A stretch of DNA of 64,000 nucleotides from Candidatus Uhrbacteria bacterium. Lineage in GTDB: Bacteria > Patescibacteriota > Patescibacteriia > UBA9934 > GWF2-40-263. The notes under the pieces were generated by a model, which saw nothing but the letters and a program-made list of their open reading frames with translations, did no database searches and was not told where the DNA came from. How positions within the stretch are numbered: position 1 is the first letter of the stretch; every line of letters starts with the position of its first letter. Location: the NCBI GenBank assembly GCA_016188475.1, contig JACPHT010000001.1, forward strand, positions 138-64,137, written 5' to 3'. Position numbers and translations under genes: made by a program. Below are positions 34,676 to 57,479 of the stretch, in pieces.

Positions 34676-37078
34676 TTATTTCACAACAATACTTACGATT
34701 CGTCCCTTCACATAAACAACTTTTTCAACTGTCTTACCTTCCAGATATTTTTTAACTTTTTCGTTTTCGAGAGCCAACTGTTTTGCAATTTTTTCTTCAA
34801 CATCAGGAGAGATTTCTAAAATTCCTCGAACTTTTCCATTCACCTGAACAGCGACCGAAATGATTTCCTCTTTTGCCAGTTCTTGATTGTGTATTGGCCA
34901 ACTTTGTTGTTCAAGAAGTTCTTTTCCACCAAGTTGTTCATGAAGTTCGTTTGACAGATGCGGCGCAAATGGACAGAGTAAGCGCAAAAATATCATAAAA
35001 CTTTCTTTTGAGATCGATCCGTTCTCTTTTGCCGCGTTCACAAAAATCATCATCTGCGAAACAGCTGTGTTGAAATGCATGTGTTCAATATCATCCGTGA
35101 CTTTTTTGATTGTTTGATGAAGTAAACGAGTGATCTTTTCTACTTCCGACTTTTCAGACCTTTCAGACTTTTCAGACCTTGTTGCCACATCTCCAACTTT
35201 CTCCAAAAACCTTCTCATACCAACAAGTCCGTTCATGCTCCACGGAACAGGTTCACCAAATGGACCCATAAACAATTCATACAAACGGACTGAATCAGCT
35301 CCGTACTCACTTACCATTTCATCTGGATTCACAACATTGCCTTTTGACTTCGACATCTTTGTTCCATCTTCTGCCAAAACAAGACCATGGCTTGTTCGCT
35401 TAGCATAAGGTTCGCTCACAGCAACATGTCCGCGATCAAACAAAAACTTATTCCAAAAACGTGAGTACAAAAGATGAAGTGTTGTGTGTTCCATTCCGCC
35501 GTTGTACCAATCAACAGGCATCCAATGTTTTAATTTTTTCTTGTCCGCAAACACTTTTTTATTTTTTGAATCAATGTACCGTAAAAAGTACCAACTTGAT
35601 CCTGCCCAATTTGGCATTGTGTCTGTTTCGCGTTTGGCAGGACCTCCACACTTTGGACATTTTGTATTTACCCAATCATGAATCGCGGCAAGAGGCGACT
35701 CGCCATTTTCTGTTGGTTCGTATTTTTCAACATCAGGCAATTGCACAGGAAGTTGTTTTTCTGGGACCGGAATCCACCCACACGCTTCACAATACACAAG
35801 TGGAATCGGCTCTCCCCAATACCTTTGGCGTGAAAAAACCCAATCACGAAGTTTGTATTGAACAGACTTTTTCCCGCCAGATTTCTCAATCGCTTCATCA
35901 AATGAAATGAGCGATCTGTCAACAATCGGTAGCCCAAACTTTTCAGCAAACTCACAATCTCGCTTGTCATGTTGAGGAACAGCCATCACAGCTCCTGTTC
36001 CATATTCACCCAAAACGTAATCAGCGACCCACACAGAAATTTTTTCTTTGTTTGCCGGATTGATGACAAACACGCCTGTTGGAACTCCTGTTTTTTCTTT
36101 ATTCTCTGCCTCGCGTTCTTTTTTATCTCGCTTGAGCGCTTGTTCAATATATCTTTTAACTTCTTCGCTCGACCTCCAACCATCTGCGATCCATTGTTGA
36201 GCTAACTCCGGAGAAATCACCAAAAACGTCGCGCCTAGAATTGTGTCAGGGCGAGTTGTGAAGACCTCGATCGACTCAACATCAGGAGATTGCTTCGCAG
36301 AGTTTACCATGAGCGAAGACAAATTTAAGCCTTCGACAGGCTCAGGCAATAAATTTGTCGAAGTCGAATGACTCACAATGACAAAACTGATTTTCGCTCC
36401 TTCGCTTTTTCCAATCCAATTTTTTTGTTGCGTTTTTATTTTTTCCAAATAATCAACTGTGTCCAAATCTTCCAACAACCGATCCGCGTATTTTGTGATC
36501 GCGATCATCCATTGCGCTTTTTCACGCTTCTCGGTCGGCCCGCCGCAACGTTCGCATTTTCCATCAACAACTTCTTCATTTGCCAAACCGATCTTGCACG
36601 ACACACACCAATTGATCGGCATCTTTGCTTTGTACGCAAGTCCTTCTTTGAAAAATTCCAAAAACATCCACTGCGTCCATTTGTAATATCCAGGATCGGT
36701 CGTATTCACTTCACGAGACCAATCAAAACTCAAACCAAACGATTGAAGTTGACGCTTGAACGTCGCGATATTTTCCGCTGTAACGTCTTGTGGTTTGCGT
36801 CCTGTTTTGATCGCGTAGTTTTCTGTTGGAAGTCCAAACGCATCCCAACCGATTGGATACAAGACATTGAAACCTTCCATTCTCCGCTTGCGAGCAACAA
36901 CGTCCATTGCCGTATAACTTCTCGGATGGCCCATGTGGAGTCCAGCGCCTGACGGATATGGAAATTCAATCAAACAATAGTACTTTGGTTTTTTTGATTT
37001 ATCTTGCGCTTGAAAAACACCGGCTTGTTCCCAGCGCTTCTGCCACTTTTTTTCAATTTGCTTGTGATTATAAGGCAT
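34676..37078 (-). CDS. leuS: leucyl-tRNA synthetase, carrying an in-frame palindromic-element insertion
   Basis: MPYNHKQIEKKWQKRW start; HMGH and KMSKS class I motifs; ORF track extends to 37105. Confidence 0.95.
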   Translation of the reverse strand: MPYNHKQIEKKWQKRWEQAGVFQAQDKSKKPKYYCLIEFPYPSGAGLHMGHPRSYTAMDVVARKRRMEGFNVLYPIGWDAFGLPTENYAIKTGRKPQDVTAENIATFKRQLQSFGLSFDWSREVNTTDPGYYKWTQWMFLEFFKEGLAYKAKMPINWCVSCKIGLANEEVVDGKCERCGGPTEKREKAQWMIAITKYADRLLEDLDTVDYLEKIKTQQKNWIGKSEGAKISFVIVSHSTSTNLLPEPVEGLNLSSLMVNSAKQSPDVESIEVFTTRPDTILGATFLVISPELAQQWIADGWRSSEEVKRYIEQALKRDKKEREAENKEKTGVPTGVFVINPANKEKISVWVADYVLGEYGTGAVMAVPQHDKRDCEFAEKFGLPIVDRSLISFDEAIEKSGGKKSVQYKLRDWVFSRQRYWGEPIPLVYCEACGWIPVPEKQLPVQLPDVEKYEPTENGESPLAAIHDWVNTKCPKCGGPAKRETDTMPNWAGSSWYFLRYIDSKNKKVFADKKKLKHWMPVDWYNGGMEHTTLHLLYSRFWNKFLFDRGHVAVSEPYAKRTSHGLVLAEDGTKMSKSKGNVVNPDEMVSEYGADSVRLYELFMGPFGEPVPWSMNGLVGMRRFLEKVGDVATRSEKSERSEKSEVEKITRLLHQTIKKVTDDIEHMHFNTAVSQMMIFVNAAKENGSISKESFMIFLRLLCPFAPHLSNELHEQLGGKELLEQQSWPIHNQELAKEEIISVAVQVNGKVRGILEISPDVEEKIAKQLALENEKVKKYLEGKTVEKVVYVKGRIVSIVVK
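36290..36395. repeat. palindromic element inserted in-frame in leuS
   Basis: GATTGCTTCGCAGAGTTTACCATGAGCGAAGACAAATTTAAGCCTTCGACAGGCTCAGGCAATAAATTTGTCGAAGTCGAATGACTC; near-identical copy in trxB; encodes NLLPEPVEGLNLSSLMVNSAKQS in LeuRS. Confidence 0.8.
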
Positions 37079-37094
37079 ACTAAATTTTAGACCT

Positions 37095-37185
37095 TGGTCT
37101 GTCATCCTGAGCCCTTCGACTTCGGTAAAGTTATCGCCTGAGCCTGTCGAAGGCCATAACTTTACCTTCGCTCAGGGTATAAACT
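37095..37185. repeat. palindromic element copies (reverse orientation) upstream of leuS
   Basis: CCTGAGCCCTTCGAC and GGTAAAGTTAT-CGCCTGAGCCTGTCGAAGGCC-ATAACTTTACC. Confidence 0.7.
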
Positions 37186-37352
37186 CCGTGAAGAATCTTT
37201 TGTTTAGAAGATCATTCGCTACGCTCAGAATGACTGAAACGCAATTCATTATTGATCCTATCACGGCGATCATAACAAAAATACGAACCGTTGACAAAAC
37301 CGAATGATTTTGATATCTTAAAAAGCCGTCACACAAAAGAATAGGAGGCAGA

Positions 37353-41663: not shown

Positions 41664-41680
41664 ATAGTGCGCAATTTCAC

Positions 41681-41819
41681 TTAACGGCCGGCGGCTGATC
41701 CGAAGTAAAAAGACACCTGACGTTTTTATGTTACAGGTGTCTTTTTATTTTGGATAGCCGCCTGTTGTGCGACGTCGCTTTGCGACGGAGCGCAACAGAG
41801 GCGAAGCCGCCGGCATAAC
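41681..41819. repeat. cassette-junction element, copy 1 (short variant)
   Basis: TTAACGGCCGGCGGC...AAAAAGACACCTG-acgtttttatgtta-CAGGTGTCTTTTT...GCCGCCGGCATAAC. Confidence 0.85.
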
Positions 41820-41882
41820 GTTTGCGTGTATGCGGTGTGGCGTCAGCCATATCGTATACACGCTGTTGTACGGAGTTTGGGC

Positions 41883-42065
41883 TTATCCTTCTCTTGCTTC
41901 TCTTTCTGCTTCGATTTTTTCCAATATCTCTCGTACTTTTTCAGGAGACGCACCAAGCTCTTCGAAGAATCTTACTTGGTCCGATGGAGGAATGGCCATT
42001 AATTTATCCAGGGCATCTTTGGCCTCAGACTCTTGAACTTCATGCTCTCGTGGTTGTTCTCTCAT
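41883..42065 (-). CDS. cassette-encoded small acidic protein
   Basis: 60-aa ORF flanked by attC-like palindromes. Confidence 0.3.
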   Translation of the reverse strand: MREQPREHEVQESEAKDALDKLMAIPPSDQVRFFEELGASPEKVREILEKIEAEREAREG

Positions 42066-42211
42066 ATGTTTAACTTGTTACTGATAAATAGCTAATGTTT
42101 AAATAATAGGATAAGACCAAATTTCGTGCAACGTTCGCGTATGATCCGACGTGATCGACCAGAGGGAGATCATGTTGGATATACGCTGTTAAGCGCCGTA
42201 CTCATTAACAA

Positions 42212-42448
42212 TTACATCGAAGAAAACGGGTCTCCGCATTGAGGACACCTGTCTGAGTTAACTAATCCGTAACTGGTTTTGCAATTTGCGCAATATACAT
42301 TTGCTGCACTTGTACGTCCGTTGGGATCTGGAACCATGGGCACTTTGCATTGAGAGCAAAGCAACTCATTACTGCCAGCGACGGCGGCAATATCAACTGT
42401 ACTATTGCATTGTGGACATTTGTACCCAAAAAATGAACCTGTTTGCAT
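42212..42448 (-). CDS. cassette-encoded zinc-ribbon protein (four CxxC pairs)
   Basis: CPQCN...CSQCK...CANCK...CPQCG. Confidence 0.5.
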   Translation of the reverse strand: MQTGSFFGYKCPQCNSTVDIAAVAGSNELLCSQCKVPMVPDPNGRTSAANVYCANCKTSYGLVNSDRCPQCGDPFSSM

Positions 42449-42466
42449 ATTTTTTCTTATTAAGAA

Positions 42467-42982
42467 TTAGGAACCTATATAAGTTGCAGTGATGTTTCCT
42501 TCTCCCTCGGCTGTGGATTTTGTGCCAGGTTTGAAAAATGTAGGCTTGGTTGTTTTGATGCCAGTTACATTACCTTTGCCTCTAGCAGTGTGTTCGCCGT
42601 CGATGGTAGTAATGAGAGAATTTAAACTTTTGTTCAAATTCTGGGTGGCCCACTCTTCATGCTCTTTTTTCCATTGTTTTAGTTGATCTACAGAGAAATC
42701 AATGCCATTATTTTTGTCGATCATATCAGCACAATTTGAACAAAGAAAAATACCATTATTTGTAGATTTTCTCTGTTCTGATGTTAAGTTTGAGTCATAT
42801 CTTGGGCCACCCTCTGCCGCAGCGGTTATATGGGCTGCTTTGCCTATGTATATAAATTTGTCCTCATTTTCTGCTGATGGGCAAAGTGTCAAATTTTTGC
42901 AATCAGGATTTGAGCAGATATAGGAGGCCCGTTTTCCTATTGCTTCAACTGTATTTTTATCAAATTCGTCTCGAGTTGACAT
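42467..42982 (-). CDS. cassette-encoded HNH endonuclease-like protein
   Basis: CSNPDCKN...AAHI...NGIFLCSNCADMID resembles the HNH beta-beta-alpha-metal motif. Confidence 0.45.
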   Translation of the reverse strand: MSTRDEFDKNTVEAIGKRASYICSNPDCKNLTLCPSAENEDKFIYIGKAAHITAAAEGGPRYDSNLTSEQRKSTNNGIFLCSNCADMIDKNNGIDFSVDQLKQWKKEHEEWATQNLNKSLNSLITTIDGEHTARGKGNVTGIKTTKPTFFKPGTKSTAEGEGNITATYIGS

Positions 42983-43007
42983 AATTTTGTATGTTAATGG
43001 GTATGGC

Positions 43008-43179
43008 GCTTAACGGCCGGCGGCTGATCCGAAGTAAAAAGACACCTGACGTTTTTATGTTACAGGTGTCTTTTTATTTTGGATAGCCGTCTGTTGTGCG
43101 ACGTCGCTTTGCGACGGAGCGCAACAGAGGCGAAGCCGCCGGCCGTTATGCCGATAGAGCAAAGCGATGTCGGCATAAC
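43008..43179. repeat. cassette-junction element, copy 2
   Basis: Near-identical to the other six copies. Confidence 0.85.
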
Positions 43180-43307
43180 GTCCCGCACTTTGCGATGTTT
43201 TGGCCTGTTATAATTTAGCACGAAGTGCTTGAACAGGCCAAAATATGGGCGTAGCGACTGAAAGGAGCGGAGCCGCAAAGTGCGTGTTAAGTGATGTTTT
43301 TATTTTT

Positions 43308-43931
43308 TCAAAGTATGCCAATTGGGCCGATTATTCTAAAGCCCTTCCGAATTGTTTCTTCGGTGTTGATTTCCCAGCACAGTGTCCCATTATAATCCAA
43401 GAATGAAACACCTAAAATTGCGTTATTTCGGGAGGGCGTTTTACTTGCTTTTTCTTGTATAGAATCAAAAATCTTCTTGGTCTTTCCCTTCATATTTTGA
43501 GGAAATTGTACCGGTTTTCTTTGTAGTTCATATGTGACTAAAAATTGCACAAATTTTTTCCAATTTGCTCGTTCACTTAGGAGTGCTCTACTAATGTTTA
43601 GTTCATCGCAGAGATTTTCAATGTTCGTTTTGAGCAAATGAAGGGAAAGACCTTCAATTACGGCGTCATTAATCCAAGTTCCTTCATTTGGATTTTTGTT
43701 ATGAGCGATCACCGCATCTGTTAAAAGTTCCAAAATTCTGAAAGCCGTAATTGAACCGGAGATTTTTGTGTGCAAGGCCCAATTGGCATACAAATTTAAG
43801 TATGGATATTTAGACTGGAAGCCTTTCTCTTCAATGATGTGCCGAAAGGCTGTCATTATTCGGAGGATATCATTTTTACTCCAATTACTATGCGAGAGTA
43901 ATTCTGTGATGTTTTTGATGTGATCTTCCAT
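43308..43931 (-). CDS. cassette-encoded hypothetical protein
   Basis: 207-aa ORF flanked by 27-bp inverted repeats that begin with GTTAAGTGA. Confidence 0.5.
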   Translation of the reverse strand: MEDHIKNITELLSHSNWSKNDILRIMTAFRHIIEEKGFQSKYPYLNLYANWALHTKISGSITAFRILELLTDAVIAHNKNPNEGTWINDAVIEGLSLHLLKTNIENLCDELNISRALLSERANWKKFVQFLVTYELQRKPVQFPQNMKGKTKKIFDSIQEKASKTPSRNNAILGVSFLDYNGTLCWEINTEETIRKGFRIIGPIGIL

Positions 43932-43949
43932 ACTTAAATTTGAAAAATA

Positions 43950-44035
43950 AAAATTTCACTTAACGTTTCGCGATATCCGACGTTTCGTAGAAATGTGGCT
44001 TTAGCCTTTACGGATATCGCGTGTTAGGCGAGGCT
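43950..44035. other. canonical attC-like site
   Basis: ACTTAAC-GTTTCGCGATATCCG...CGGATATCGCG-T-GTTAGGC: RYYYAAC and GTTRRRY boxes with complementary inner arms. Confidence 0.6.
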
Positions 44036-44064
44036 TCAGCTCTTGAGTTTGAATTTAAACTTTT

Positions 44065-44460
44065 TTAATATTTATCCTTAATGTATTTAAGAACTTCTAT
44101 ATCGTGGTCAATAATCTTTAGCTTGTTTATCTCGGAAAGATGAAACCAACCAAAATTTTGTCCTTCGCCTAAAGTAATTATTTTACTCGGATCAAATTCT
44201 TCCACAAAAACATGTTTTTCATTGGTTTCATCTTTCGACAAAAAATCTTGCTTCATTATCATCTTAGGGTTTTTGAGTGTGTAATTCAGCTCTTCAAGTG
44301 TTTCTCGCTTCACAGCCTGTTCTGGAGTTTCACCAGCTTCAATACCGCCACCGAAAAAAGCCCAATATCCAGGCAACCTTTCAGCATCTTCAGCACGATG
44401 TTGAAGTAAGATTTTTTTGTCTTGGTCGTATAAAATTATAATAGCTACGTTTCTCGCCAT
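44065..44460 (-). CDS. cassette-encoded NUDIX hydrolase
   Basis: Nudix box GGGIEAGETPEQAVKRETLEELNY; ORF flanked by 26-bp perfect inverted repeats TTTGAATTTAAACTTTTTTAATATTT. Confidence 0.8.
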   Translation of the reverse strand: MARNVAIIILYDQDKKILLQHRAEDAERLPGYWAFFGGGIEAGETPEQAVKRETLEELNYTLKNPKMIMKQDFLSKDETNEKHVFVEEFDPSKIITLGEGQNFGWFHLSEINKLKIIDHDIEVLKYIKDKY

Positions 44461-44518
44461 ATAGAAGTTCTTAAATGTTAAAATAAAGAAATATTAAAAA
44501 AGTTTAAATTCAAATTTC

Positions 44519-44690
44519 GCCTAACGGCCGGCGGCTGATCCGAAGTAAAAAGACACCTGACGTTTTTATGTTACAGGTGTCTTTTTATTTTGGATAGCCG
44601 CCTGTTGTGCGACGTCGCTTTGCAACGGAGCACAACAGAGGCGAAGCCGCCGGCCGTTATGCCGACAGAGCAAAGCGATGTCGGCATAAC
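44519..44690. repeat. cassette-junction element, copy 3
   Basis: Near-identical copy. Confidence 0.85.
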
Positions 44691-44921
44691 GTTCGTGTGT
44701 ATCTGAAGTTTTCATTCCGCTTCAATGGAATAAACTTTGATTATTAGATACACGCTTTTTAATAGAACCCCACCCAAATCCTCATCAAAACTAAGGGATG
44801 AAAATTTGGGCGGAGGAAAATTGGCACTCCTTAAGGATTTAATTAACGCCAATTTTCCATAGCCAGATACACGCTGTTATACGCTGTAATAAAAAGCCGA
44901 TTCGTTATTGATTTTGGCAAT

Positions 44922-45164
44922 TTATTTTTCTGTTTTGGAACCAAGAAATTTTCCCTCCACTACAACATCTTGTAATGCATTGAATAATTGAAGAACGCCG
45001 TTGCGGTGTTCCTCATTAACTTGAGGAAGTATTTCTTGAGTTAAACGAGCAAGACCTTCTGTAACTTTCCCTTTTGCATATTCTGGTAATGCTTTCATAT
45101 TGGGAGTCAATTCTACTGATAGCGAGGCTTTTGCGCCAACCTCTGGCCTGAATGTTTCTGTCAT
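44922..45164 (-). CDS. cassette-encoded hypothetical protein
   Basis: 80-aa ORF. Confidence 0.35.
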   Translation of the reverse strand: MTETFRPEVGAKASLSVELTPNMKALPEYAKGKVTEGLARLTQEILPQVNEEHRNGVLQLFNALQDVVVEGKFLGSKTEK

Positions 45165-45274
45165 ATTTTTTTAAGTTAATTATTACTTTGATTATACTAT
45201 GAGTTATACTCGACCGCTTCAAATAAATTGCCAAAATCAATATTCAAATTTCACAATCGGCTTTTTATTATGGC

Positions 45275-45446
45275 GTATAACGGCCGGCGGCTGATCCGAA
45301 GTAAAAAGACACCTGACGTTTTTATGTTACAGGTGTCTTTTTATTTTGGATAGCCGCCGGTTGTGCGACGTCGCTTTGCGACGGAGCGCAACAGAGGCGA
45401 AGCCGCCGGCCGTTATGCCGACAGAGCAAAGCGATGTCGGCATAAC
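45275..45446. repeat. cassette-junction element, copy 4
   Basis: Near-identical copy; terminator hairpin at 45303-45347. Confidence 0.85.
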
Positions 45447-45689
45447 GTTCCTGCGTATGCGATGTTTGCCAGTGGTATAATTGCACGAAGTGCTTACCAC
45501 TGGCAAATATGGGTGGAGGCTTGCGGAGGTACGAAGCAAGCCGTAACCGCATACGCAGTGTTATATGATGTACATGTTTTCCTTTAATTTCTGAAAGAAA
45601 TTGCTCTTATAAAAGAATCCGGTTTTGTTTTTCCGTTTGGGGCGAAGGGCAGAGGGGATTAAGGGGTGAATGCCCGAGCCCCAAACACT

Positions 45690-46298
45690 TTAATCTTCTT
45701 CACCCTCAATTCTTTTTCTGCGCTCATCTAGCGTTTCGCCTTCATACATCCAATAAGCTGTTCCTTGAATTCCGTAATCATAACCGAGAATTTTTTGTGC
45801 AGAAGAAGAAAGACTTGTAACTTTGCCATTAAAATTGATGGATTTATTATCAACCACATTTGCCTTAATGTTTTCATCGCGACTAAAAATTAATTCTGCA
45901 CCAACCGGAATGTTGACCATCTTAAAATTAAACTTAGCTCGCATTTCTGCACGTGCTTGATTTAGGGCATGCTGATCTTCTTTTGATTCCACGAAGTCTT
46001 TTTTAGGCGTAATATCTTCAATCTCTGCCAATTTAAGTGCAGAAACTACACGTTCTGGAGAGATTTGAAAAAATTCTCGTCTTGGATTTGTTCGGTTATT
46101 GTCAAATGCATCATGTAGCTGATGTTCAACAAAGGCTGCGTCTTTTACGGTACATGCGTAGAAACAAGTAAAAGGAAGTGGAACGCTCGTGGAAGCGCTA
46201 AGCTCTCTAATCCTTTGCTCAAGGCTTGTTGAAGTTTTGCCAATTTTTACATATCCAGGCATGGCTTCATTGATGAGAATGTAGATGATTTCAATCAT
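45690..46298 (-). CDS. T5orf172 (GIY-YIG-like) domain protein, second gene of the candidate defense pair
   Basis: IYILINEAMPGYVKIGKT...RIREL...PLPF...RREFF matches the T5orf172 pattern; start ATG overlaps the upstream stop (ATGA). Confidence 0.6.
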   Translation of the reverse strand: MIEIIYILINEAMPGYVKIGKTSTSLEQRIRELSASTSVPLPFTCFYACTVKDAAFVEHQLHDAFDNNRTNPRREFFQISPERVVSALKLAEIEDITPKKDFVESKEDQHALNQARAEMRAKFNFKMVNIPVGAELIFSRDENIKANVVDNKSINFNGKVTSLSSSAQKILGYDYGIQGTAYWMYEGETLDERRKRIEGEED

Positions 46299-48013
46299 AA
46301 TTTTATAGATTTATTTGGTGCTAAAAGTTCCTTAATTTTTGAAATTAAAGGTTTGAAATTCCCAAAAGTATCCGAGCTGGTTTCAGCTTGAACTTTATTT
46401 AAAAATTTGCCTTTATCGAAAGTGGTGATTGACGTAGTTGCACTATATGAGCCAGGTCTTACTTCCGTAGAGTAAACGTCATCTGTGAATAAGGTATCGG
46501 GGTATAGATTTTCAATGCCAACAGCTTTTCCATCTTTATCTTTAGCCTTTGTATTTGCAGAATTTTCCGCAAAGCAAAACTTTTTAAAGCTTTCTGTTTC
46601 TGTAATGCTGTTTATCATGGAGGCGCAGTCACAATCCCAAACAAAAAGGAACTTTCCGCTAAAATCACCGGACGACATTACGTCAAAAGCGTTTTTCAAC
46701 TGTTGCCCGCGCTTATCTGGCGAACCTTCTATAATTTTAATTTGACTAAGTAAAGTGTTGTCGAGGATTTCAAAAGCTTTTTTAATATGCTCTGTATTAT
46801 TTCCCTCCGTAACAATTTGTAAACTTTTCGTGCCATCAATCTCTTTTTGTATTTTTAAACCCTTTTCAAAGGTTATGATCCCCTCGCTTAAAAGGTTAAT
46901 AGCGTCTCCCTGTGATATTTTTCTGATTTTTTCATTTTTTTTGCCCTTCTGTATCTCAAATAGTGATTCTTCATATGCTAATGCGACCGTGGTCGGAGAA
47001 TGGGTAGCAAGAATAACCTTACAGCCGTTTTTTATGAACACATTTTGAATCACATCCAATAAATCTTGAATCATGGATGGATGAAGTGATGCATCTACTT
47101 CATCAAGAAGTAACAATGCAGGAAATTCTGATTTGTTATCTTGATAAACTGTAATAGCCAGTGCGCACAATATCTTTTCACCCGATGACAAGTCTTCAAA
47201 ATCAATTTCTTCATCATCTATGGAGAGTTTTACTTGAAATGATACAGCTTGACTATTTATCAGATCTCCAGCTGTAAATTCTGGATGTGAAATAGTATGA
47301 AGTAGCCCAAACTCTTTAAACATGCTGTTTACAAAATTCCATGGAGATTGTTCTTCTATTTTTTTGATTTGGCTATCGTTTAATCCTTCTCCGCCGTCGC
47401 TTTCTCTTAATTTTGCCACGGTTAGTTTTTTTTGATAATCAAGAAAAACTTCGCTTAAACTTTCTAGAAGCTCGTACTCATCTGGGCTGTAGTTTGAAAA
47501 TTTAAAAAATTCTGCCTGTGTGATTTCCGAAGCGTATTTAACAGACTCGAATACGCCCGTTTTTAAAAGCTTCTTAATTTTGGGATTATCTTTTGTATGC
47601 TTATTTATAAAGGTTAGAATATCCTTTTTTTGTTCAGCGTATTTTTGTTTTTGTGCTTTTGGCACTTCAAAATCATAGGGGTACTCCTTTTCGCCCACGA
47701 ATGTTTTAATTTGATTGTCGTAATTTTGGAATTGTTGCCTTTGAGAATTTAAGATATTCCACGCTTGCATTTTTTCATCATCAAGATTCCGTGGGGCAAT
47801 TTTAGCCTGGTTCTTTATGAGAAATGTTTGTAGGTTAAAGTACGAAATCCTTTCTTTTTGTATGTTGTCAGCTGAAACAAAGCCCTCTTGCATCGCCTTG
47901 AGCAAGTGAGTTTTTCCAGCGCCGTTTACACCTAGAAATATCGAAAAGTCCTTAATATCAATTTCACTAAAGTTGGCGATTGATTTATGTTTTTGATTGA
48001 ATTTAATATTCAT
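46295..48013 (-). CDS. OLD-like ABC-type ATPase fused to a C-terminal TOPRIM-like nuclease domain
   Basis: Walker A GVNGAGKTHLLKA, ABC signature LSSGEKI, Walker B LLLLDEVDASLHP, H-loop ATHSP; C-terminal IVTEGNNTE ... FVWDCDC resembles TOPRIM Glu and DxD. Confidence 0.6.
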   Translation of the reverse strand: MNIKFNQKHKSIANFSEIDIKDFSIFLGVNGAGKTHLLKAMQEGFVSADNIQKERISYFNLQTFLIKNQAKIAPRNLDDEKMQAWNILNSQRQQFQNYDNQIKTFVGEKEYPYDFEVPKAQKQKYAEQKKDILTFINKHTKDNPKIKKLLKTGVFESVKYASEITQAEFFKFSNYSPDEYELLESLSEVFLDYQKKLTVAKLRESDGGEGLNDSQIKKIEEQSPWNFVNSMFKEFGLLHTISHPEFTAGDLINSQAVSFQVKLSIDDEEIDFEDLSSGEKILCALAITVYQDNKSEFPALLLLDEVDASLHPSMIQDLLDVIQNVFIKNGCKVILATHSPTTVALAYEESLFEIQKGKKNEKIRKISQGDAINLLSEGIITFEKGLKIQKEIDGTKSLQIVTEGNNTEHIKKAFEILDNTLLSQIKIIEGSPDKRGQQLKNAFDVMSSGDFSGKFLFVWDCDCASMINSITETESFKKFCFAENSANTKAKDKDGKAVGIENLYPDTLFTDDVYSTEVRPGSYSATTSITTFDKGKFLNKVQAETSSDTFGNFKPLISKIKELLAPNKSIKL

Positions 48014-48192
48014 AGTTTACTTCAAGTGTGGAAATCACAAATTGGCGTTATTTTACTCCGTTTCCTCCTATAAATAAATCGTTTTCGGAGCGGAGCGTAG
48101 AAAACTCCTTATTTCCCCTCTATAAAAAAAGAAAAACAAAACCGGATTCTTTTTAAGAGCTTGGCGAAGCCAAAAAGGAAAACATGTATTTC

Positions 48193-48340
48193 ATATAACG
48201 GCTGGCGGCTGATCCGAAGTAAAAAGACACCTGACGTTTTTATGTTACAGGTGTCTTTTTATTTTGGATAGCCGCCTGTTGTGCGACGTCGCTTTGCGAC
48301 GGAGCGCAACAGAGGCGAAGCCGCCGGCCGTTATGCCGAC
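48193..48340. repeat. cassette-junction element, copy 5
   Basis: Near-identical copy (CGGCTGG variant at the left arm). Confidence 0.85.
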
Positions 48341-48481
48341 AGAGGCGGAACAAAAATTTGGGAGAAGGAATTTTTCTTACCTTGAATTATAAATGTGAAA
48401 AATTCCTGAACCGGATATGCCGTGTTGTGCGATGTCCGCATTTGCCCGCCCTTGTTAGTTGGAAATGGATGCCCCGAAATC

Positions 48482-49060
48482 TTATTGCAAAATCTTTTCC
48501 AATAGTTCAGGAAACTCCTCGGTTTTCATATCGCCCAAGCAGTAATGACCTCGCCCTTTTAGCTCGACAATCTCGCCACCAAGCACCTCATGAAAAATTT
48601 TTAAACTTTTTTTACCGTCTTCCTCCTCGTCGTCCGCAGTGAACATAACTATTTGATTTATCCTATCCTTGATAGACGAGTCAATCTGATATGTATAGAA
48701 ATTTACATCGGTACCACTTCTTTTTTCTTGCGGAATTTTCCAAGGCGCGACTAAAAAAAGTTTAAAAATTTTGGTCTTAGTCTCACTAAGCCAGCGAACC
48801 AAGAAGGCGCAACCGCAACTATGTCCAACTAAAATTGTGTTTTCATCAACAGTATATTTTTCAAATTCAGCCTTAAATTTTTCATAATCAGGTTGCCAAG
48901 GCGAGGGCATGAGAGGAGTTTCCGTTTCAATATTTTTTGCAATAAGATTTCTTTTTAACCACGGAATCCAGTGCTTGTCATAAGTCCTTGTTTCAGGATT
49001 CATCGCTTTTTCAGCATCAGAGGGGCATCCATGGATTATGATACATCTATTCTTTGTCAT
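48482..49060 (-). CDS. cassette-encoded alpha/beta hydrolase (RBBP9/YdeN-like serine hydrolase)
   Basis: IIIHGCPS ... LVGHSCG nucleophile elbow. Confidence 0.55.
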   Translation of the reverse strand: MTKNRCIIIHGCPSDAEKAMNPETRTYDKHWIPWLKRNLIAKNIETETPLMPSPWQPDYEKFKAEFEKYTVDENTILVGHSCGCAFLVRWLSETKTKIFKLFLVAPWKIPQEKRSGTDVNFYTYQIDSSIKDRINQIVMFTADDEEEDGKKSLKIFHEVLGGEIVELKGRGHYCLGDMKTEEFPELLEKILQ

Positions 49061-49325
49061 ATGGTTGAATGTTATTTTTAGCACTAGGGCAAATGCGGAT
49101 TTCGCACAACGTATCCAAATATCTGAAGTTTCGCACTTTGGTTTTAAGGCTAAAATCTTTGATATCCAGACTATTTTGTTAGTTTAATTATACTATACAT
49201 TATCACAAAACGGAAAAGTGCGAAATTTGGGTCGAGAAAATTTTTCACTCTTTATTATTTCTAATAAATGAAAAATTTTGGAGCCAGATATTTGGTGTTC
49301 AACGATGTTGCGAGGATTTTCGTTT

Positions 49326-49547
49326 TTATTTCTCAGAATGTTTTAATTTAATCAAATCATATATTGCAGAAACGGTAAAAATAATTTGCAAAATAATAAA
49401 TATTAAATCGCTTAGGTAAATACTGTATATTTCCAGGCATACTCCGCCAACAATATACATCAAGTCCTGCGTACGACGATTTTTATTTATAATGCCAGCG
49501 GATATTAATAATAATCCGACCGCGCCTATCATCTTAAAAATTGACAT
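49326..49547 (-). CDS. cassette-encoded small membrane protein
   Basis: About 73 aa; three hydrophobic helices. Confidence 0.4.
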   Translation of the reverse strand: MSIFKMIGAVGLLLISAGIINKNRRTQDLMYIVGGVCLEIYSIYLSDLIFIILQIIFTVSAIYDLIKLKHSEK

Positions 49548-49594
49548 ATTATTTTGCAAATTATTTTGTTTTCAGGAAAAAATCCTCGCAATTT

Positions 49595-49700
49595 CGTTGA
49601 ACGTTCACCGATAAGCGAAGTTTTATTGAGCAAAGCGAAATAAAATTTGCGAAAAACTCGGGCTGAGAGTTTTTCCGCTTATCGCGTTGTTATACGCCCC
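49595..49700. other. attC-like site
   Basis: TTGAAC-GTTCACCGATAAGCG...CGCTTATCGCG-T-GTTATAC. Confidence 0.55.
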
Positions 49701-49758
49701 GAGCGAAACGAAGTGTAGCGAGAGCGCAGCGTGGTGCGGAGCGTAGCGGAGCAAGTTG

Positions 49759-50262
49759 CTAATTTGCCCGTTTCATCTGCTGGACTTTTTTTAAAAACAC
49801 AATATCTCTTTGCTGAATAAAAGAACCCTCATAATTTGTTGGTTTATCGTTTTCAACTTTGGAAATTGCTTCATCTAATGGCAACCAAACGAGTTTAAAG
49901 TTTTGGCTTAATTCCTCTTCCGTGAAAGCAGGCGACCCTTTTGATGTTATTTTGCCTATATAACAATAGGATATTTGTTTCAAATTGAAATTTGAACGAT
50001 ATTCAATAATTTCCCCAACTTCACCAGTGACTTTAATTTCACTCCCGACTTCTTCCATAACTTCGCGGACCAGAGCTGCGGCCTTATTTTCGCCATCGTC
50101 GATTCCGCCGCCAGGTAATTTGTGATAGTTATAATTTGAAACAAATAGAAGAGGAATTAAGCCATTCTCGTCAAAAAGCACAGCTCTTGATGCTTCTCTA
50201 ATTTCCAAAGTTGATTCATCTTTAGGCCACTCTTTGTCTTTTATCTCGTGTAATAGTTCCAT
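49759..50262 (-). CDS. cassette-encoded NUDIX hydrolase
   Basis: Nudix box GGGIDDGENKAAALVREVMEEVGSE. Confidence 0.8.
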   Translation of the reverse strand: MELLHEIKDKEWPKDESTLEIREASRAVLFDENGLIPLLFVSNYNYHKLPGGGIDDGENKAAALVREVMEEVGSEIKVTGEVGEIIEYRSNFNLKQISYCYIGKITSKGSPAFTEEELSQNFKLVWLPLDEAISKVENDKPTNYEGSFIQQRDIVFLKKVQQMKRAN

Positions 50263-50323
50263 AGTAAATTATGAGGGTTCTTTATTTTTATAAATGTATC
50301 GGCAAGGGCAAATTAGCAATTGC

Positions 50324-50468
50324 GTATAACGGCCGGCGGCTGATCCGAAGTAAAAAGACACCTGACGTTTTTATGTTACAGGTGTCTTTTTATTTTGGAT
50401 AGCCGCCTGTTGTGCGACGTCGCTTTGCGACGGAGCGCAACAGAGGCGAAGCCGCCGGCCGTTATGCC
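50324..50468. repeat. cassette-junction element, copy 6
   Basis: Near-identical copy. Confidence 0.85.
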
Positions 50469-50549
50469 ATTACCGCCTAAGCGAGAGAAGGATGGCGTAT
50501 ACGCGCTGTTGTACGATTGCAGAACACCAACTTGAATTATGTAATCTTG

Positions 50550-51158
50550 CTAAATAGTAGTATGGACAAAGTCGTAAAATTGAGAAAAGTCTTTGACGAC
50601 AATAGACGGATTGCCGTTAATTAAATTTTGTTCATTTTGGTAACCACCAAGAATTCCAACAATTATTTTCACACCAACCTTCTTAGCTTCAGCAATATCT
50701 CCGGCTGTGTCGGTAATAAAAGTAACATTATTGGGTTCCAGAGCATATTTTTCAAATAGCATCTTAAATTTTTCTACCTTGCTTGTATGAACCTCATTGC
50801 CAAGAATCTTTTGAAAACAGGATAGTATGCCATGGCTCTGAAGATAGTCTTGAATGATATCACTTCGAGTACTTGAAATAATAAATAGTTGGAACTCTTG
50901 TGATAATTTTTGAATAAAGTCTTTCTTTTTTGAATCAATACCTAAATGTTTGAAACGGTCCCCGTACTCTCTAAAAAAGTCTATTTTTTTTACGACTTTG
51001 TCCTCGTATTTTACTTCATTAATATTACCATTGAAGGCATTTTGATATCGCTCCAAAGTTAAAGTTGGCCTTGAGAGCTTATTCACTTCAAAAGCTATGT
51101 CAAAACTATCAGCGATTACTCCATCAAAGTCGAAGATAATAGTAGGCTTATGATCCAT
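50550..51158 (-). CDS. cassette-encoded HAD-family hydrolase
   Basis: IIFDFDGVIADS motif I (DxDG). Confidence 0.7.
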   Translation of the reverse strand: MDHKPTIIFDFDGVIADSFDIAFEVNKLSRPTLTLERYQNAFNGNINEVKYEDKVVKKIDFFREYGDRFKHLGIDSKKKDFIQKLSQEFQLFIISSTRSDIIQDYLQSHGILSCFQKILGNEVHTSKVEKFKMLFEKYALEPNNVTFITDTAGDIAEAKKVGVKIIVGILGGYQNEQNLINGNPSIVVKDFSQFYDFVHTTI

Positions 51159-51189
51159 AGATCTTAAATAAAAGGGTGTTCTGCTTTTC

Positions 51190-51305
51190 GTACAACGTTC
51201 GCGCATAAGCGATGTTTGCCAGTTGTATAATATGCCGTTAGGCTTACAACTGGCAAATATGGGTGGAGCGACGAGGTACGAGGAGCGGAACCGTTTATGC
51301 GCTGT
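51190..51305. other. attC-like site
   Basis: GTACAAC-GTTCGCGCATAAGCG...CGTTTATGCGC-T-GTTAAGT with internal TTTGCCAGTTGTA/TACAACTGGCAAA dyad. Confidence 0.55.
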
Positions 51306-51326
51306 TAAGTGATGTGTTTGAGAATT

Positions 51327-52034
51327 CTACTTCAAATAGGTTTCCAGATTTTTGACCATTCGCCCCACATAAAGGTTTAGGCTTTTTTGGCCAATTTCCT
51401 TATTAACAATCCAATCGGGATGATTATCTGCAATTCCATTCGGACTTTTTTCAGCTATATTATCAGTTTCAAAGGCATCTTCGATGAAGGTCTTTTTTTC
51501 GTCTTTGCTTGGCGGAATGACAGTCGCTTCATCTATTACCATCATGTTTGAAATTTCGGTATTGCCTGCATGTCCATCTGATGGACCGCCAAGCATTTCA
51601 ACAAGCTTTTGTTCATCCTCATCGTTGCACATCTCAAGATGAACTATTTTAGCGGGCTGAAAAAAGTCCGATTTTTCTCGGATAAACTTTTGAATATATG
51701 GGTCATTATGATGAAACGATGTAATGAAAATATAATCTGCTTTTTGAAAAATAGAATTGCAGATATCAAACATTACTTGAGCAAGTGTTTCTTCGGTAAG
51801 ATAGACTGTGCCAAAAAAGCCACGGTGCTCTTGTGCACGAGAGAACTCTAACGTTGGAAGAATTACCAGCTCAGGAAACTGTTTCTCAACTTGATCAACA
51901 AGATAGTCAGTAATATACGTGTCAGTACCGAAGGGGGCGAATGGTCCATGTTGCTCAAGCGAACCTATTGGAACGACGAAATTGTATTTTGTATCACCAG
52001 ATAAATCTGGAAACCTCATTCTTTTTAATCTCAT
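51327..52034 (-). CDS. cassette-encoded creatininase-family amidohydrolase
   Basis: VVPIGSLEQHGP ... GTD ... GHAGNTE motifs. Confidence 0.65.
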   Translation of the reverse strand: MRLKRMRFPDLSGDTKYNFVVPIGSLEQHGPFAPFGTDTYITDYLVDQVEKQFPELVILPTLEFSRAQEHRGFFGTVYLTEETLAQVMFDICNSIFQKADYIFITSFHHNDPYIQKFIREKSDFFQPAKIVHLEMCNDEDEQKLVEMLGGPSDGHAGNTEISNMMVIDEATVIPPSKDEKKTFIEDAFETDNIAEKSPNGIADNHPDWIVNKEIGQKSLNLYVGRMVKNLETYLK

Positions 52035-52065
52035 ATTTTTAGTATAGATGAATTCTCAAACATTT

Positions 52066-52214
52066 CACTTAACGGCCGGCGGCTGATCCGAAGTAAAAAG
52101 ACACCTGACGTTTTTATGTTACAGGTGTCTTTTTATTTTGGATAGCCGCCTGTTGTGCGACGTCGCTTTGCGACGGAGCGCAACAGAGGCGAAGCCGCCG
52201 GCATGTCGGCATAA
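52066..52214. repeat. cassette-junction element, copy 7 (short variant), proximal to the recombinase
   Basis: Near-identical copy about 155 bp from the recombinase start. Confidence 0.85.
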
Positions 52215-52371
52215 CTAGTAAATATACGAACTTGTGTCGGATAAAATACTTTGAAAATGAATTATATGATGTGAGTAACCTGCGTTGACAAGTACATGAA
52301 ATCATGTAACAATAAGATTGTAAATAACCTCCTATTCTAATCTTGATGGGCGGTTTTTTTATATCTTCAAT

Positions 52372-53202
52372 ATGTTTTTAATTTCTAATACCGAACAAGC
52401 GTTGTTGTCTATTGACCAACTTCTACGCATAAAAAATTACAGTCCAAAAACAATAAAAAGTTACAAGGGCTGTTTGGCTAGATTCTTAAAACAGTTTCCT
52501 GATTGTTTGAACTATTCAAACATCGAGTGTATCAAAACATTCCTTTTATCCATGCGCGAATCTGGATTATCTCCTCAAACTATCAATGTACATCTTCAGG
52601 CAATACAATTTTATTTTCGTGAAATCTTACATCAACCATTCCGTTTCACTCTACCATACGCAAAACGACCGAAACGGTTGCCTGTCATACTTTCTAGATC
52701 AGAAATTGAACAAATTCTAAACCATATATCAAACACAAAACATAAAACCATGATCGCTCTGGCTTATGGGGCGGGACTCCGTGTCTCTGAAGTGGTTGAG
52801 TTGCGCTCTGGAAACGTAGATTTTCCTTCCGGAGTTTTATATATTTATCAAAGTAAAGGCAAAAAAGATCGTATAACAATTCTTCCAGAAATATTGCGCG
52901 ATGAATTACAAAAAGCGGTTTGTGGAAAATCACCGAACGATTATCTTTTTGCCAGCGAACGAGGCGGACGTTTGTCTGAACGTTCAATTCAAAAAGTATT
53001 TTCTCGTGCGCTTCATTCAACACAGATAAACAAACAAGCAACATTTCATTCACTGCGTCATAGCTTCGCAACACACGTTTTGGAACAAGGAACTGACATC
53101 AGATTCATTCAAAAACTTCTTGGCCATGCAAATATTAGAACAACACAAATTTACACTCACGTTTCAACAGCTTCTATCAGTGCAATCAAAAGCCCGCTAT
53201 AG
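52372..53202 (+). CDS. tyrosine site-specific recombinase, integron-integrase-like (XerC/D superfamily)
   Basis: R...HSLRHSFATHVLEQGTDIRFIQKLLGH...TTQIYTHV catalytic core; LPVILSRSEIEQIL and GAGLRVSEVVELRSGNVDF...YQSKGKKDRIT segments resemble IntI as recalled; transcribed divergently from the cassette array; appears to lack the long IntI-specific insertion. Confidence 0.7.
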   Translation: MFLISNTEQALLSIDQLLRIKNYSPKTIKSYKGCLARFLKQFPDCLNYSNIECIKTFLLSMRESGLSPQTINVHLQAIQFYFREILHQPFRFTLPYAKRPKRLPVILSRSEIEQILNHISNTKHKTMIALAYGAGLRVSEVVELRSGNVDFPSGVLYIYQSKGKKDRITILPEILRDELQKAVCGKSPNDYLFASERGGRLSERSIQKVFSRALHSTQINKQATFHSLRHSFATHVLEQGTDIRFIQKLLGHANIRTTQIYTHVSTASISAIKSPL

Positions 53203-53212
53203 ACAAAATAAT

Positions 53213-54319
53213 TTATTCCCGTGAGAGCCACCTCTCAGCATCAAGAGCGGCAACACAACCCGAACCGGCGGCTGTGACAGCTTGGCGATAATACGGATCA
53301 ATCACATCGCCTCCAGCAAATACTCCTTCAACACTTGTTTTTGAAGTGTTTGGTTTCACAACAATATATCCTTTGCGATCAAGTTCAAGTTGATTGACAA
53401 ACAAATCTGTGTTTGGTTGATGTCCAATCGCGACAAACAATCCATCAGCGGAAAAATCTGAAACAACGTTTGTGACATTATTCAAAACTCGAACTGCATT
53501 CATTCTTTTTCCATCGCCTAGAACCTCTTGAACTTCTGTGTTAAACATAAATCCAATCTTCGGATTCTTCATCGCTCGCTCCTGCATAATCTTTGACGCG
53601 CGCAACTCATTTCGTCTGTGTATCACTGTTACTTTGCTTGCAAAATGTGTAAGAAAATTCGCTTCCTCCATTGCCACGTCTCCGCCACCAACCACAATAA
53701 CGTGCTTGTCCTTGAAAAAAAATCCGTCACACGTTGCGCATGCGGAAACGCCGCGACCTTGATATTCTTTTTCACCTGGAACATTCAACCACAATGCTTT
53801 CGCGCCAGTACAGATAATAATCGCTTGGCTTGAATATACCGCTTCGTTTGTTTTTACAATAAATGGTAAAGATTGCTTCGCGGAGTTTACAATGAACGAA
53901 GATAAATTTATGCCTTCGACAAGCTCAGGCAATAAATTTGTCTGGGTCGAATGACTCGAAATGATATTTTTTTGTTCGACAAGCTCAGGCAATAAATTTA
54001 TAGGAGTCAAAGGGCTCGTAGTGACGGTCTTTTGTCGAGCGGAAAAATCAACTGAAACCACATCGTCGCTCACAATTCGAGTTCCAAATCGTTCAGCTTG
54101 TTTCTTGAAACGTTCCATGAGTTCTGGTCCAATTAACCCTTCTGGAAATCCGGGAAAATTTTCAACTTCGTTTGTTAACATCAACTGCCCTCCAGGCTGT
54201 CCGCCAATCTGTTTTCCTTCAAACAAAAGCGGTCGCAACTGCGCGCGCGCCGCGTAAATTGCCGCCGTATATCCAGCCGGACCAGAACCGATAATGATAA
54301 GATTTTCTGACGTACTCAC
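53213..54319 (-). CDS. trxB: thioredoxin reductase carrying an in-frame palindromic-element insertion
   Basis: GSGPAGYTAAIYAARA FAD motif, CATC redox site, GGGDVAMEEA NADPH motif. Confidence 0.9.
   Translation of the reverse strand: MSTSENLIIIGSGPAGYTAAIYAARAQLRPLLFEGKQIGGQPGGQLMLTNEVENFPGFPEGLIGPELMERFKKQAERFGTRIVSDDVVSVDFSARQKTVTTSPLTPINLLPELVEQKNIISSHSTQTNLLPELVEGINLSSFIVNSAKQSLPFIVKTNEAVYSSQAIIICTGAKALWLNVPGEKEYQGRGVSACATCDGFFFKDKHVIVVGGGDVAMEEANFLTHFASKVTVIHRRNELRASKIMQERAMKNPKIGFMFNTEVQEVLGDGKRMNAVRVLNNVTNVVSDFSADGLFVAIGHQPNTDLFVNQLELDRKGYIVVKPNTSKTSVEGVFAGGDVIDPYYRQAVTAAGSGCVAALDAERWLSRE
53872..54010. repeat. palindromic element (one full copy plus one partial copy) inserted in-frame in trxB
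   Basis: Cores GCCTTCGACAAGCTCAGGC at 53912-53930 and GTTCGACAAGCTCAGGC at 53974-53990; encodes NLLPELVEQKNIISSHSTQTNLLPELVEGINLSSFIVNSAKQS. Confidence 0.8.
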
Positions 54320-54338
54320 AAAATATAGAAATTATATT

Positions 54339-54357
54339 GCCTTCGACAGGCTCAGGC
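54339..54357. repeat. palindromic-element core in the trxB-trxA spacer
   Basis: GCCTTCGACAGGCTCAGGC flanked by ATTATATT / AATAATTT. Confidence 0.6.
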
Positions 54358-54365
54358 AATAATTT

Positions 54366-56759: not shown

Positions 56760-57479
56760 ATGAATGGATTTTTGCTTATCAATAAACCGGAAGGACCGAC
56801 ATCTCATGATATTGTTGATTCTGTACGTAGAAATATCCAACCTCCGACTTCCAACCTCCGACTTCCGAAAGTTGGGCATGCCGGAACGCTTGATCCTTTT
56901 GCATCTGGACTTTTAATTGTTGGCGTTGGACGCGAAGCAACGCGTGAAATGCAAAAACTTGTTGGTTTAGATAAAACTTATGAGGCAGTGTTTGTTTTGG
57001 GAGCTTCATCTGATACTGATGATAAAACTGGGAAAATAACTTTGGTCCATCCACAAGAACCTTTGACGCAAGAACGTGTTCAAGAAGCTCTCAAACAATT
57101 TATTGGTGAAATAGAACAAACGCCACCGGTATATTCCGCGATAAAAATAGGCGGAAAAAAAATGTACGAAGCCGCTCGTGAAGGAAAACCAATAGAAGCT
57201 AAAGCAAGAGAAGTGACGATATATTCCATGAGCGAAGTCCAGTTTATCCCTTCGACTAGCTCAGGGAATAAACTGGACAAAGTCGAACGGGCGACTATCT
57301 CTTTAACCATTCACTGCTCATCCGGCACATATATCCGCGCGATCGCGCGAGATCTTGGGCAGGTGCTTGGCACTGGCGGATATGTTGAATCTCTTCGTCG
57401 AACAAAAATCGGACCGTTCGATATTTCTGAATGTAGCGAGTCAATTATTCCAATAAGTGCCTTTTTATCGAGGCTTTGA
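56760..57479 (+). CDS. truB: tRNA pseudouridine(55) synthase, carrying an in-frame palindromic-element insertion
   Basis: MNGFLLINKPEGPTSHDIV..GHAGTLDP..; ORF track extension to 56556 overlaps infB and is not translated. Confidence 0.85.
   Translation: MNGFLLINKPEGPTSHDIVDSVRRNIQPPTSNLRLPKVGHAGTLDPFASGLLIVGVGREATREMQKLVGLDKTYEAVFVLGASSDTDDKTGKITLVHPQEPLTQERVQEALKQFIGEIEQTPPVYSAIKIGGKKMYEAAREGKPIEAKAREVTIYSMSEVQFIPSTSSGNKLDKVERATISLTIHCSSGTYIRAIARDLGQVLGTGGYVESLRRTKIGPFDISECSESIIPISAFLSRL
57210..57300. repeat. palindromic element inserted in-frame in truB
   Basis: CCATGAGCGAAGTCCAGTTTATCCCTTCGACTAGCTCAGGGAATAAACTGGACAAAGTCGAACGG; stem arms changed compensatorily relative to the leuS copy. 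Confidence 0.75.

Follow-up and report, generated by a model that had tools for sequence, protein, structure and literature searches.

We analysed a stretch of 64,000 nt from a Candidatus Uhrbacteria bacterium (contig JACPHT010000001.1 of assembly GCA_016188475.1, positions 138 to 64,137; here called the window), in which the gene trxB, coding for a thioredoxin reductase, contains an additional in-frame block of palindromic DNA. The gene is part of a trxA-trxB operon arrangement that is retained in the window and in syntenic relatives, and related palindromic sequences are found in leuS, in truB and between genes of the same window. The insert is probably a selfish repeat of the kind known from the Rickettsia palindromic elements (RPE), belonging to a noncoding, hairpin-forming family that settled in trxB and is translated within the protein.

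An in-frame palindromic insert in trxB

The borders of the insert were set against the empty site of locus L001, which carries a 90%-identical orthologue (Table 1). The added DNA is in frame, free of stop codons and a whole number of codons long, and the same trxB frame continues on both flanks. The first-pass annotation, made from the letters of the window, had described an in-frame palindromic repeat in one complete and one partial copy, and both the repeat finder and the ortholog alignments agree with that description. It had placed the insert at 53872-54010 and counted about 50 residues; the insert is there, but its borders lie farther out on both sides, and it encodes 56 residues.

The insert is made up of one complete composite palindromic element of ~95 nt and a partial copy on its 5' side. 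Read along the coding strand, it comprises a 9-nt lead, the arm GTCACTACGAG, a partial module that runs as far as the core CCTGAGCTTGTCGAA, an A-rich joint, the arm TCATTTCGAG, a complete module, the arm GCGAAGCAATCT, and TTA; its predicted translation would include the peptide NIISSHSTQTNLLPELVEGINLSSFIVNSAK. The repeat finder reports an internal tandem with a 60-nt period, or 20 codons (53897-53956 and 53957-54016, 75% alike), and direct alignment of the partial with the complete unit gives 82% identity over 50 nt.

Outside the insert, the protein belongs to the TrxB class. The GSGPAG, CATC, GGGD, and HRR motifs are all intact, the Pfam family Pyr_redox_2 is matched at 2.3e-53, and the TIGR01292 equivalog model gives 392 bits versus a cutoff of 343. 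Structural comparison by Foldseek of the TrxB model with solved thioredoxin reductases (TrxR) yielded target-normalised TM-scores of 0.83 to 0.87. Most of the 120 best homologues listed are ~312 aa long and have no insert, and the solved TrxR 5uth aligns as two blocks, its residues 14-108 and 110-317 corresponding to query residues 3-101 and 159-367. A 56-residue insertion could harm a compact flavoenzyme, and one may ask whether trxB is a decaying pseudogene inactivated in this way. We regard this as extremely improbable, given an open reading frame (ORF) that stays open over 368 codons, conserved motifs, 90% identity to insert-free orthologues outside the insert, a score above the equivalog cutoff, and the preserved operon.

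The AlphaFold2 model of TrxB, built on a 117-sequence alignment, has a mean predicted local distance difference test (pLDDT) value of 80.6. It places the insert at a β-hairpin turn of the FAD domain, 43 residues before CATC. The first-pass annotation had put the insert between the FAD-domain strand and the CATC active-site region; the site is this turn and not a domain boundary. Insert residues 100-146 have pLDDT values below 50 and are predicted to be disordered, and the flanking strands (87-91 and 153-157) are modelled confidently. The equivalent site in E. coli TrxB is the turn at Q-N-R-P in the antiparallel β-meander of the FAD domain. Solved TrxR sequences align straight across the insert gap, and the insert may lie in a surface loop. 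With the site at a turn and disorder predicted for the 56 additional residues, TrxB very probably retains its fold and activity, and the insert would be neutral for it.

Copies in leuS, in truB, and between genes

A 25-nt probe from the insert, allowing up to 3 mismatches, hit 5 sites in the window versus 0 in 100 dinucleotide shuffles. Three essential genes, trxB, leuS, and truB, have the element in frame, each with intact domains flanking it. The repeat finder paired 53870-53964 in trxB with 36287-36381 in leuS at 88% and with 57206-57300 in truB at 63%. The identity of more than 90% over ~110 bp once claimed for the leuS copy was too high, the alignment giving 88.4% over 95 nt. This copy consists of the arm GTCATTGTGAG, a module, and the right arm GCGAAGCAATCT, colinear with the complete trxB unit, and in the protein it falls between positions equivalent to Thermus residues 236 and 243, at the junction of the editing domain and the catalytic body of leucyl-tRNA synthetase (LeuRS).

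The element is also present between genes. The palindrome upstream of leuS (134 nt) has a fold energy of -49 kcal/mol (z = -4.8), and its left half is colinear with the complete trxB unit. A solo core hairpin lies in the spacer between trxA and trxB, and the relative L005 has a core hairpin copy at the same place.

Six-frame translation of the composite element left only one of the three frames in each orientation free of stop codons. The same strand and the same frame are used in trxB and leuS (LLPEPVEGLNLSS and LLPELVEGINLSS, with LLPE(L/P)VEG), which confirms the earlier remark that the LLPELVEG peptide of TrxB is common to LeuRS. The open frame of the other orientation is the one used in truB, where it gives PSTSSGN. 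Because a stop-free frame is used at a turn that probably tolerates it, the element could have persisted in trxB.

Table 1. Coordinates in the window of trxB, of the parts of its insert, and of related copies
Feature	Position	Strand	Description
trxB, low-molecular-weight thioredoxin-disulfide reductase	53213..54319	minus	368 aa, GTG start, CATC active site at residues 194-197
Whole insert relative to the empty orthologous site	53867..54034	minus	168 nt, 56 codons, residues 96-151, QKTVTTSPLTPINLLPELVEQKNIISSHSTQTNLLPELVEGINLSSFIVNSAKQSL; from protein and DNA alignments
Outer left arm GTCACTACGAG	54015..54025	minus	Diverged form of GTCATTGCGAG, present at the same place in relatives
Partial unit 1	53965..54014	minus	Hairpin module from its 5' side as far as the core (CCTGAGCTTGTCGAA), then an A-rich joint; 3' half of the module missing
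Complete unit 2	53870..53964	minus	Colinear with the leuS copy
Unit 2, inner left arm TCATTTCGAG	53955-53964	minus	
Unit 2, hairpin module	53882-53954	minus	
Unit 2, right arm GCGAAGCAATCT	53870-53881	minus	
Unit 2, innermost hairpin	53904..53939	minus	Conserved core TTGCCTGAGCTTGTCGAAGGC enclosed by an AT-rich stem, AAATTTAT / ATAAATTT
Composite element in leuS	36287..36382	minus	In frame, residues 244-278 of ORF 34676..37105
Intergenic full palindrome, both halves	37101..37234	plus	Just upstream of leuS; outer stem GTCATCCTGAGC / GCTCAGAATGAC; left half holds the hairpin module
Solo core hairpin TATTGCC-TTCGACAGGCTCA-GGCAATA	54335..54361	minus	In the 46-nt trxA-trxB spacer
Hairpin module in truB	57226..57290	plus	In frame, opposite strand of the element read, giving SEVQFIPSTSSGNKLDKVE; true coding sequence ~56760..57479

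The intergenic palindrome has the first ATG of the leuS ORF (37105) within its arm. Judging from orthologues and solved structures, translation more likely starts at the ATG near 37079 (MPYNHKQ); with that start, the palindrome would lie ~20 nt upstream, in a region shared with the divergent gene at 37353. The N-terminal part of truB contains a 14-nt tandem duplication in two copies (AACCTCCGACTTCC, 56839-56866). The segment NIQPPTSNLRLPK of the window's TruB is replaced and lengthened relative to TTGERR of three orthologues, and in sequence it is similar to the CCTTCGACTTCG portion of that element.

Nested hairpins with a conserved loop

All layers of the element follow a common plan, a closing stem and an 11-nt loop of the form GAGC-NNNN-CGA, which the core type has as GAGCYTGTCGA and the arm type as GAGCGAAGCGA. 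A further hairpin can occupy the middle of this loop, and the copies in trxB and leuS are three layers deep. Their outermost layer is formed by the arms GTCATTGYGAG ... GCGAAGCAATC, and their middle layer, reverse oriented, by CCATGAGCGAAG ... CGAAGTCGAATG (plus strand), which encloses the inner core hairpin. The AT-rich inner stem varies among copies (GACAAATTTA, GGTAAAGTTAT, and GTCCAGTTTAT), and the loop keeps the core GCCTGAGCYTGTCGAAGGC.

In a wider sample, the centre of core-type loops consisted of 2 nt in 56 copies, of a small, variable GC-rich hairpin in ~35, and of a whole nested core in 5 to 7; arm-type hairpins vary at the loop centre in the same manner. A perfect stem of at least 7 bp surrounds the core in 29 of 160 distinct metagenome copies, compared with 98 of 3190 control pairings, in which the flanks were taken from different copies. 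Among the 24 copies with stems of at least 8 bp, there are 22 different stem sequences. These figures show constraint on the hairpin.

Empty, short, and long alleles at orthologous sites

We compared the trxB site in syntenic loci of relatives (truB-infB-trxA-trxB-recombinase). The codon is empty in L001 (protein P0003), where TTCGA directly precedes CCATTT, and in P0005. In L002, L003, and L004, which are three independent assemblies (protein P0002), the same codon is occupied by 39 nt, ..GTCATTGCGAG-CGA-AGCGAAGCAATC.., and in L005 (P0004) by an arm-only insert of 45 nt; P0006 has the same short insert at the protein level. The window has the arms of its relatives with 1.5 modules between them. 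Because the relatives hold only short arms, or nothing, at this codon, the hairpin module appears to sit inside an older, smaller arm-only element, and the same would apply to leuS.

The leuS site gives a similar picture over a longer timescale, and element-derived sequence is found there in many Uhrbacteria. The full palindrome is present in L248 (arm-CGAAG-arm plus its inverted half, translated as VIASEAKQS..EIASS..PRND), the right half only in L245, a decayed left half in L247, and, in the window and in L246, a left half whose arms enclose the module. In truB, the module alone occupies the site in the window and in L001, and a full palindrome of ~100 nt occupies it in L002 and L005. The leuS element of the window is 90.5% identical to that of L246, and the whole gene is 87% identical. 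As the copies are thus about as diverged as their host genes, the orthologous copies are old residents, not recent arrivals.

These comparisons bear on two further explanations. The insert could be an assembly artefact produced when reads were mis-joined at a repeat in a metagenome-assembled genome: repeats are a classic cause of mis-assembly, and the exact 368-aa protein comes from one contig. However, the two flanks share a reading frame, and the length of the insert is divisible by three; the arms occur at exactly the same codon in the three independent assemblies and in L005; the tandem units are only 75 to 82% alike, so that collapse or expansion of identical repeats is unlikely; and the orthologous leuS copy is present in the independent assembly L246. 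We consider an artefact highly improbable.

Alternatively, the host may have taken over the insert as a functional loop, with, for example, a partner-binding or regulatory role, and selection on the protein would then maintain it. Several species retain the arm-derived peptide QKTV..AKQSL at this position, and the leuS element has not decayed faster than its gene. Nevertheless, this DNA is also present in intergenic positions, in either orientation, and in unrelated proteins; two close relatives (P0003 and P0005) do without the insert; its peptide is predicted to be disordered; and conservation of a DNA hairpin explains the conserved sequence equally well. A functional loop is hence unlikely in our judgment.

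LeuRS itself ranges in length from 756 to 1004 aa in relatives. The leuS gene of L247 (1501-3969; GCA_016208545.1) contains two further arm-type hairpins, at ~2772 and ~3477, and the LeuRS of L135 has further peptides that stem from repeats, with VIPSPKGEESP..AGAQDDN located where the editing domain is joined and EPSTSSGN located within the anticodon-binding region. Some sites look like places of recurrent insertion.

Distribution across genomes and host genes

The 19-nt core (GCCTGAGCYTGTCGAAGGC) was found, among the matches listed, in Chloroflexota, Bacteroidota, Sphingomonadales, Burkholderiales, Verrucomicrobia, Fibrobacteria, and Uhrbacteria. In the cross-phylum copies (L006-L124), it usually forms an inverted pair that makes a stem, and its flanks differ by phylum (CCGTTCG.., TGTCA.., or TTATT..). 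BLAST with the proteobacterial variant against plasmids found copies in Sphingobium, Variovorax, and Polaromonas, and no annotated feature lies under these plasmid copies.

With the Uhrbacteria-type probe TTATYGCCTGAGCYTGTCGAAGGC, at least 120 metagenome loci were recovered, and 24 nonredundant metagenome copies lie within long open stretches. Pfam matched nine of the ten host ORFs scanned, namely, FemAB, GrpE, an RluA-type pseudouridine synthase, UvrC, YjeF, DUF2779, UvrA, SMC, and a CCA/poly(A) polymerase; the tenth, ComF-like, had no Pfam match. For UvrC and DUF2779, the reported Pfam matches flank the insertion point and do not cover it. L135, a LeuRS by inspection of its sequence, also hosts a copy, which brings the distinct in-frame host families to ten together with the nine from Pfam (spot checks). 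Confirmation of hosts by Pfam is confined to the low-GC metagenome set. Long stop-free stretches around the cross-phylum copies were dropped as evidence of host genes, since GC-rich genomes give long frames by chance.

The hosts use four reading frames and both orientations, and the absence of stop codons is the only rule that we saw. The first-pass annotation had asked whether frame and strand are biased genome-wide; across the family, neither is fixed. None of 183 copies clearly splits a gene by means of a stop-containing copy, the 21 candidates being adjacent genes (such as pheS and pheT, or nusB and rnc).

These data also bear on whether the mature enzyme contains the loop at all, as it would not if the element were removed after transcription or bypassed in translation, acting as a mini-intron, a ribozyme-like element, or a hop. 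The element does fold into stable hairpins, and Candidate Phyla Radiation (CPR) bacteria are known for introns in their rRNA genes. However, every in-gene copy seen is stop-free and a multiple of three in length, which removal would not need, none of the 183 copies clearly splits a gene, Rfam gave no match up to an E value of 5, self-cleaving ribozymes and group I and II introns included, and intein motifs are absent. Removal or bypass is therefore very unlikely.

Intergenic tandem arrays of the core unit, with 3 or 4 copies and periods of 40 to 48 nt, are present in L148 (2959-3072), L226 (1365-1510), and L235. Because such arrays occur, the frame-preserving 60-nt tandem in trxB fits a general habit of the element.

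In L151, L209, and L226, where the element occupies short spacers separating the genes of an operon, the upstream ORF often reads into the element and ends on element residues and an element stop, as in a peptidyl-tRNA hydrolase ending in ..AFDKLRQ*. In the host proteins of L126, L129, and L155, there are also peptides of the type that other families of repeats encode (CHPERSEGS, CHPEFISGS..QVQDDK, and ITNYKLQTN). Several unrelated repeat families may be translated inside CPR proteins.

A proposed history of the trxB insert

We propose that trxB first acquired a short element consisting of arms only, placed in frame at the tip of the FAD-domain β-hairpin, in an ancestor of this group of Uhrbacteria. 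In the lineage of the window, the loop of this element would then have gained a hairpin module, either through loop-directed insertion or by copying from another composite copy, such as that in leuS. Lastly, a 60-nt (20-codon) stretch may have been duplicated or partly reinserted, yielding 1.5 copies. The order of arms, module, and partial duplication is suggested by the alleles compared above. Our best guess for the spread of the element is a trans-acting DNA mechanism that recognises hairpins, with replication slippage accounting for the tandem part. The insert is presumably translated as part of TrxB.

Several points weigh against this account. The 1.5-copy form (P0001) was seen on one contig only and has one member. 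In a neighbour-joining TrxB tree with the insert masked, which represents a single gene, filled and empty alleles are interleaved, a pattern that calls for precise loss, for recombination between alleles, or for gain more than once at the same codon. Set against the empty site, neither the window nor L002 nor L005 has a target-site duplication, and trxB showed neither a clear terminal inverted repeat nor a linked transposase, although no search aimed at transposases was made; for these reasons, we infer mobility only from the distribution of the element. Finally, the variable hairpins at the loop centre could belong to a single structured unit whose distal stem varies, and need not be the product of successive insertions.

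A wider reading would place the element in a superfamily of recursively nested hairpin elements that extends from Proteobacteria and Bacteroidota to Chloroflexota and CPR, grows through hairpins at the loop centre, and lies in frame in many CPR housekeeping genes. We think this possible but doubtful. If true, such a superfamily would be a major source of lineage-specific insertions in CPR proteins and would imply a conserved DNA machinery that recognises hairpins; the cross-phylum core already hints at a common recognition mechanism.

The interpretation of the trxB insert as a translated selfish repeat has practical consequences. The natural allelic series, with empty, short, and long forms at one codon, allows tests of how the element enters, grows, and exits. 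Inserts of this kind would explain odd length variation and low-confidence loops in CPR proteins, and annotators should be warned that LLPELVEG, PSTSSGN, and VIASEAKQS are repeat-derived peptides.

Comparison with known systems

No copy of the element matched Rfam, either at the gathering threshold or up to an E value of 5; weak matches to Rfam microRNA models belong to unrelated hairpin repeats at 41 to 52 kb. Four insert peptides had no NCBIfam or Pfam match up to an E value of 10, Hint and intein families of Pfam included. The TIGRFAM-derived models of NCBIfam should include RPE domain models. A protein database search with the 56-aa insert peptide found no candidate sharing enough words with it. 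Full-text literature searches did not find the DNA core, the arm strings, or the peptide strings, and topic searches gave only Rickettsia papers and papers on MITEs (miniature transposable elements with inverted repeats).

Two readings of the motifs were rejected. A hammerhead-like reading of CUGAGC...GUCGAAG fails because the CUGANGA and GAAA boxes are absent and Rfam is silent, and mimicry of a tRNA T arm (GCC-TTCGACA-GGC) fits the CAGG variant only and not the equally common CAAG variant.

Like the attC sites of integrons, the element is a folded hairpin in which shape outweighs stem sequence, and an integron-like array adjoins trxB. Unlike attC sites, it is also found away from the array and is not a border of gene cassettes, and no sequence is common to the trxB element and the attC-like repeats at 41673-52274. 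The integron-like locus (41673-52274 plus 52372-53202) consists of seven near-identical repeats of ~135 to 214 nt, with attC-like termini (TAACGGCCGGCGGC ... GCCGCCGGCCGTTAT), between small minus-strand ORFs. A divergent tyrosine recombinase of 276 aa adjoins it and scores just below the integron-integrase cutoffs of TIGR02249 (205.7 versus 265) and NF040815 (214.5 versus 220). It aligns to the integron-integrase models in two separate blocks, skipping the central model segment, and it also lies beside trxB in L001, L002, and L005, where the genes around it differ. Our literature search found no dedicated paper on integrons in the CPR.

Repetitive extragenic palindromic (REP) elements and the bacterial interspersed mosaic elements (BIMEs) built from them are hairpin units with a conserved head, variable parts, and mosaic combinations, and IS1397 inserts into their loops. 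By definition, REP elements lie outside genes, and they begin with a GTAG motif that is tied to RAYT transposases. The trxB element resembles them in its hairpin units, its mosaics, and its use of hairpin loops as insertion points. It differs from them in its many intragenic copies and in its arms, which read GTCATTGCGAG, with no GTAG, and we do not class it as a REP element.

With intragenic MITEs, among them ERIC, BOX, and Anabaena MITEs, it shares its nature as a small, nonautonomous inverted-repeat element that is sometimes fused in frame with ORFs, as they are portrayed in a 2024 MITE review (PMC10969869). Unlike MITEs, it has no target-site duplication at the single site for which a clean empty allele is available, and its arms form inverted repeats only imperfectly. 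Within the 64 kb covered, no parent insertion sequence was identified, none having been searched for. We do not class it as a MITE.

The closest parallel is with RPE, described by Ogata et al. (2000) and outlined in the same review as palindromic repeats of ~100 to 150 bp that lie in frame in unrelated housekeeping genes (PMC10969869). As in that outline, the element is a short palindromic repeat dispersed in a small genome above chance expectation, with in-frame copies in unrelated housekeeping genes; its peptide may be tolerated at sites that suit the fold, and no transposase lies within it (PMC10969869). Unlike RPE, it has a host in Uhrbacteria, an unrelated phylum, and peptides without a Pfam or NCBIfam match, so that neither host nor peptide homology places it in the Rickettsia RPE families proper. 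It also stands apart in its nested hairpins with a conserved 11-nt loop, its 19-nt core common to many phyla, its tandem partial copies, and the different variants found at one orthologous site. By analogy, the element would work like an RPE without being one. The review treats the phenomenon as exceptional and calls a similar process in other prokaryotes merely "conceivable" (PMC10969869). Selfish DNA lying in frame in essential genes has until now been regarded as peculiar to Rickettsia; the trxB insert would extend it to an unrelated, large, and uncultivated group.

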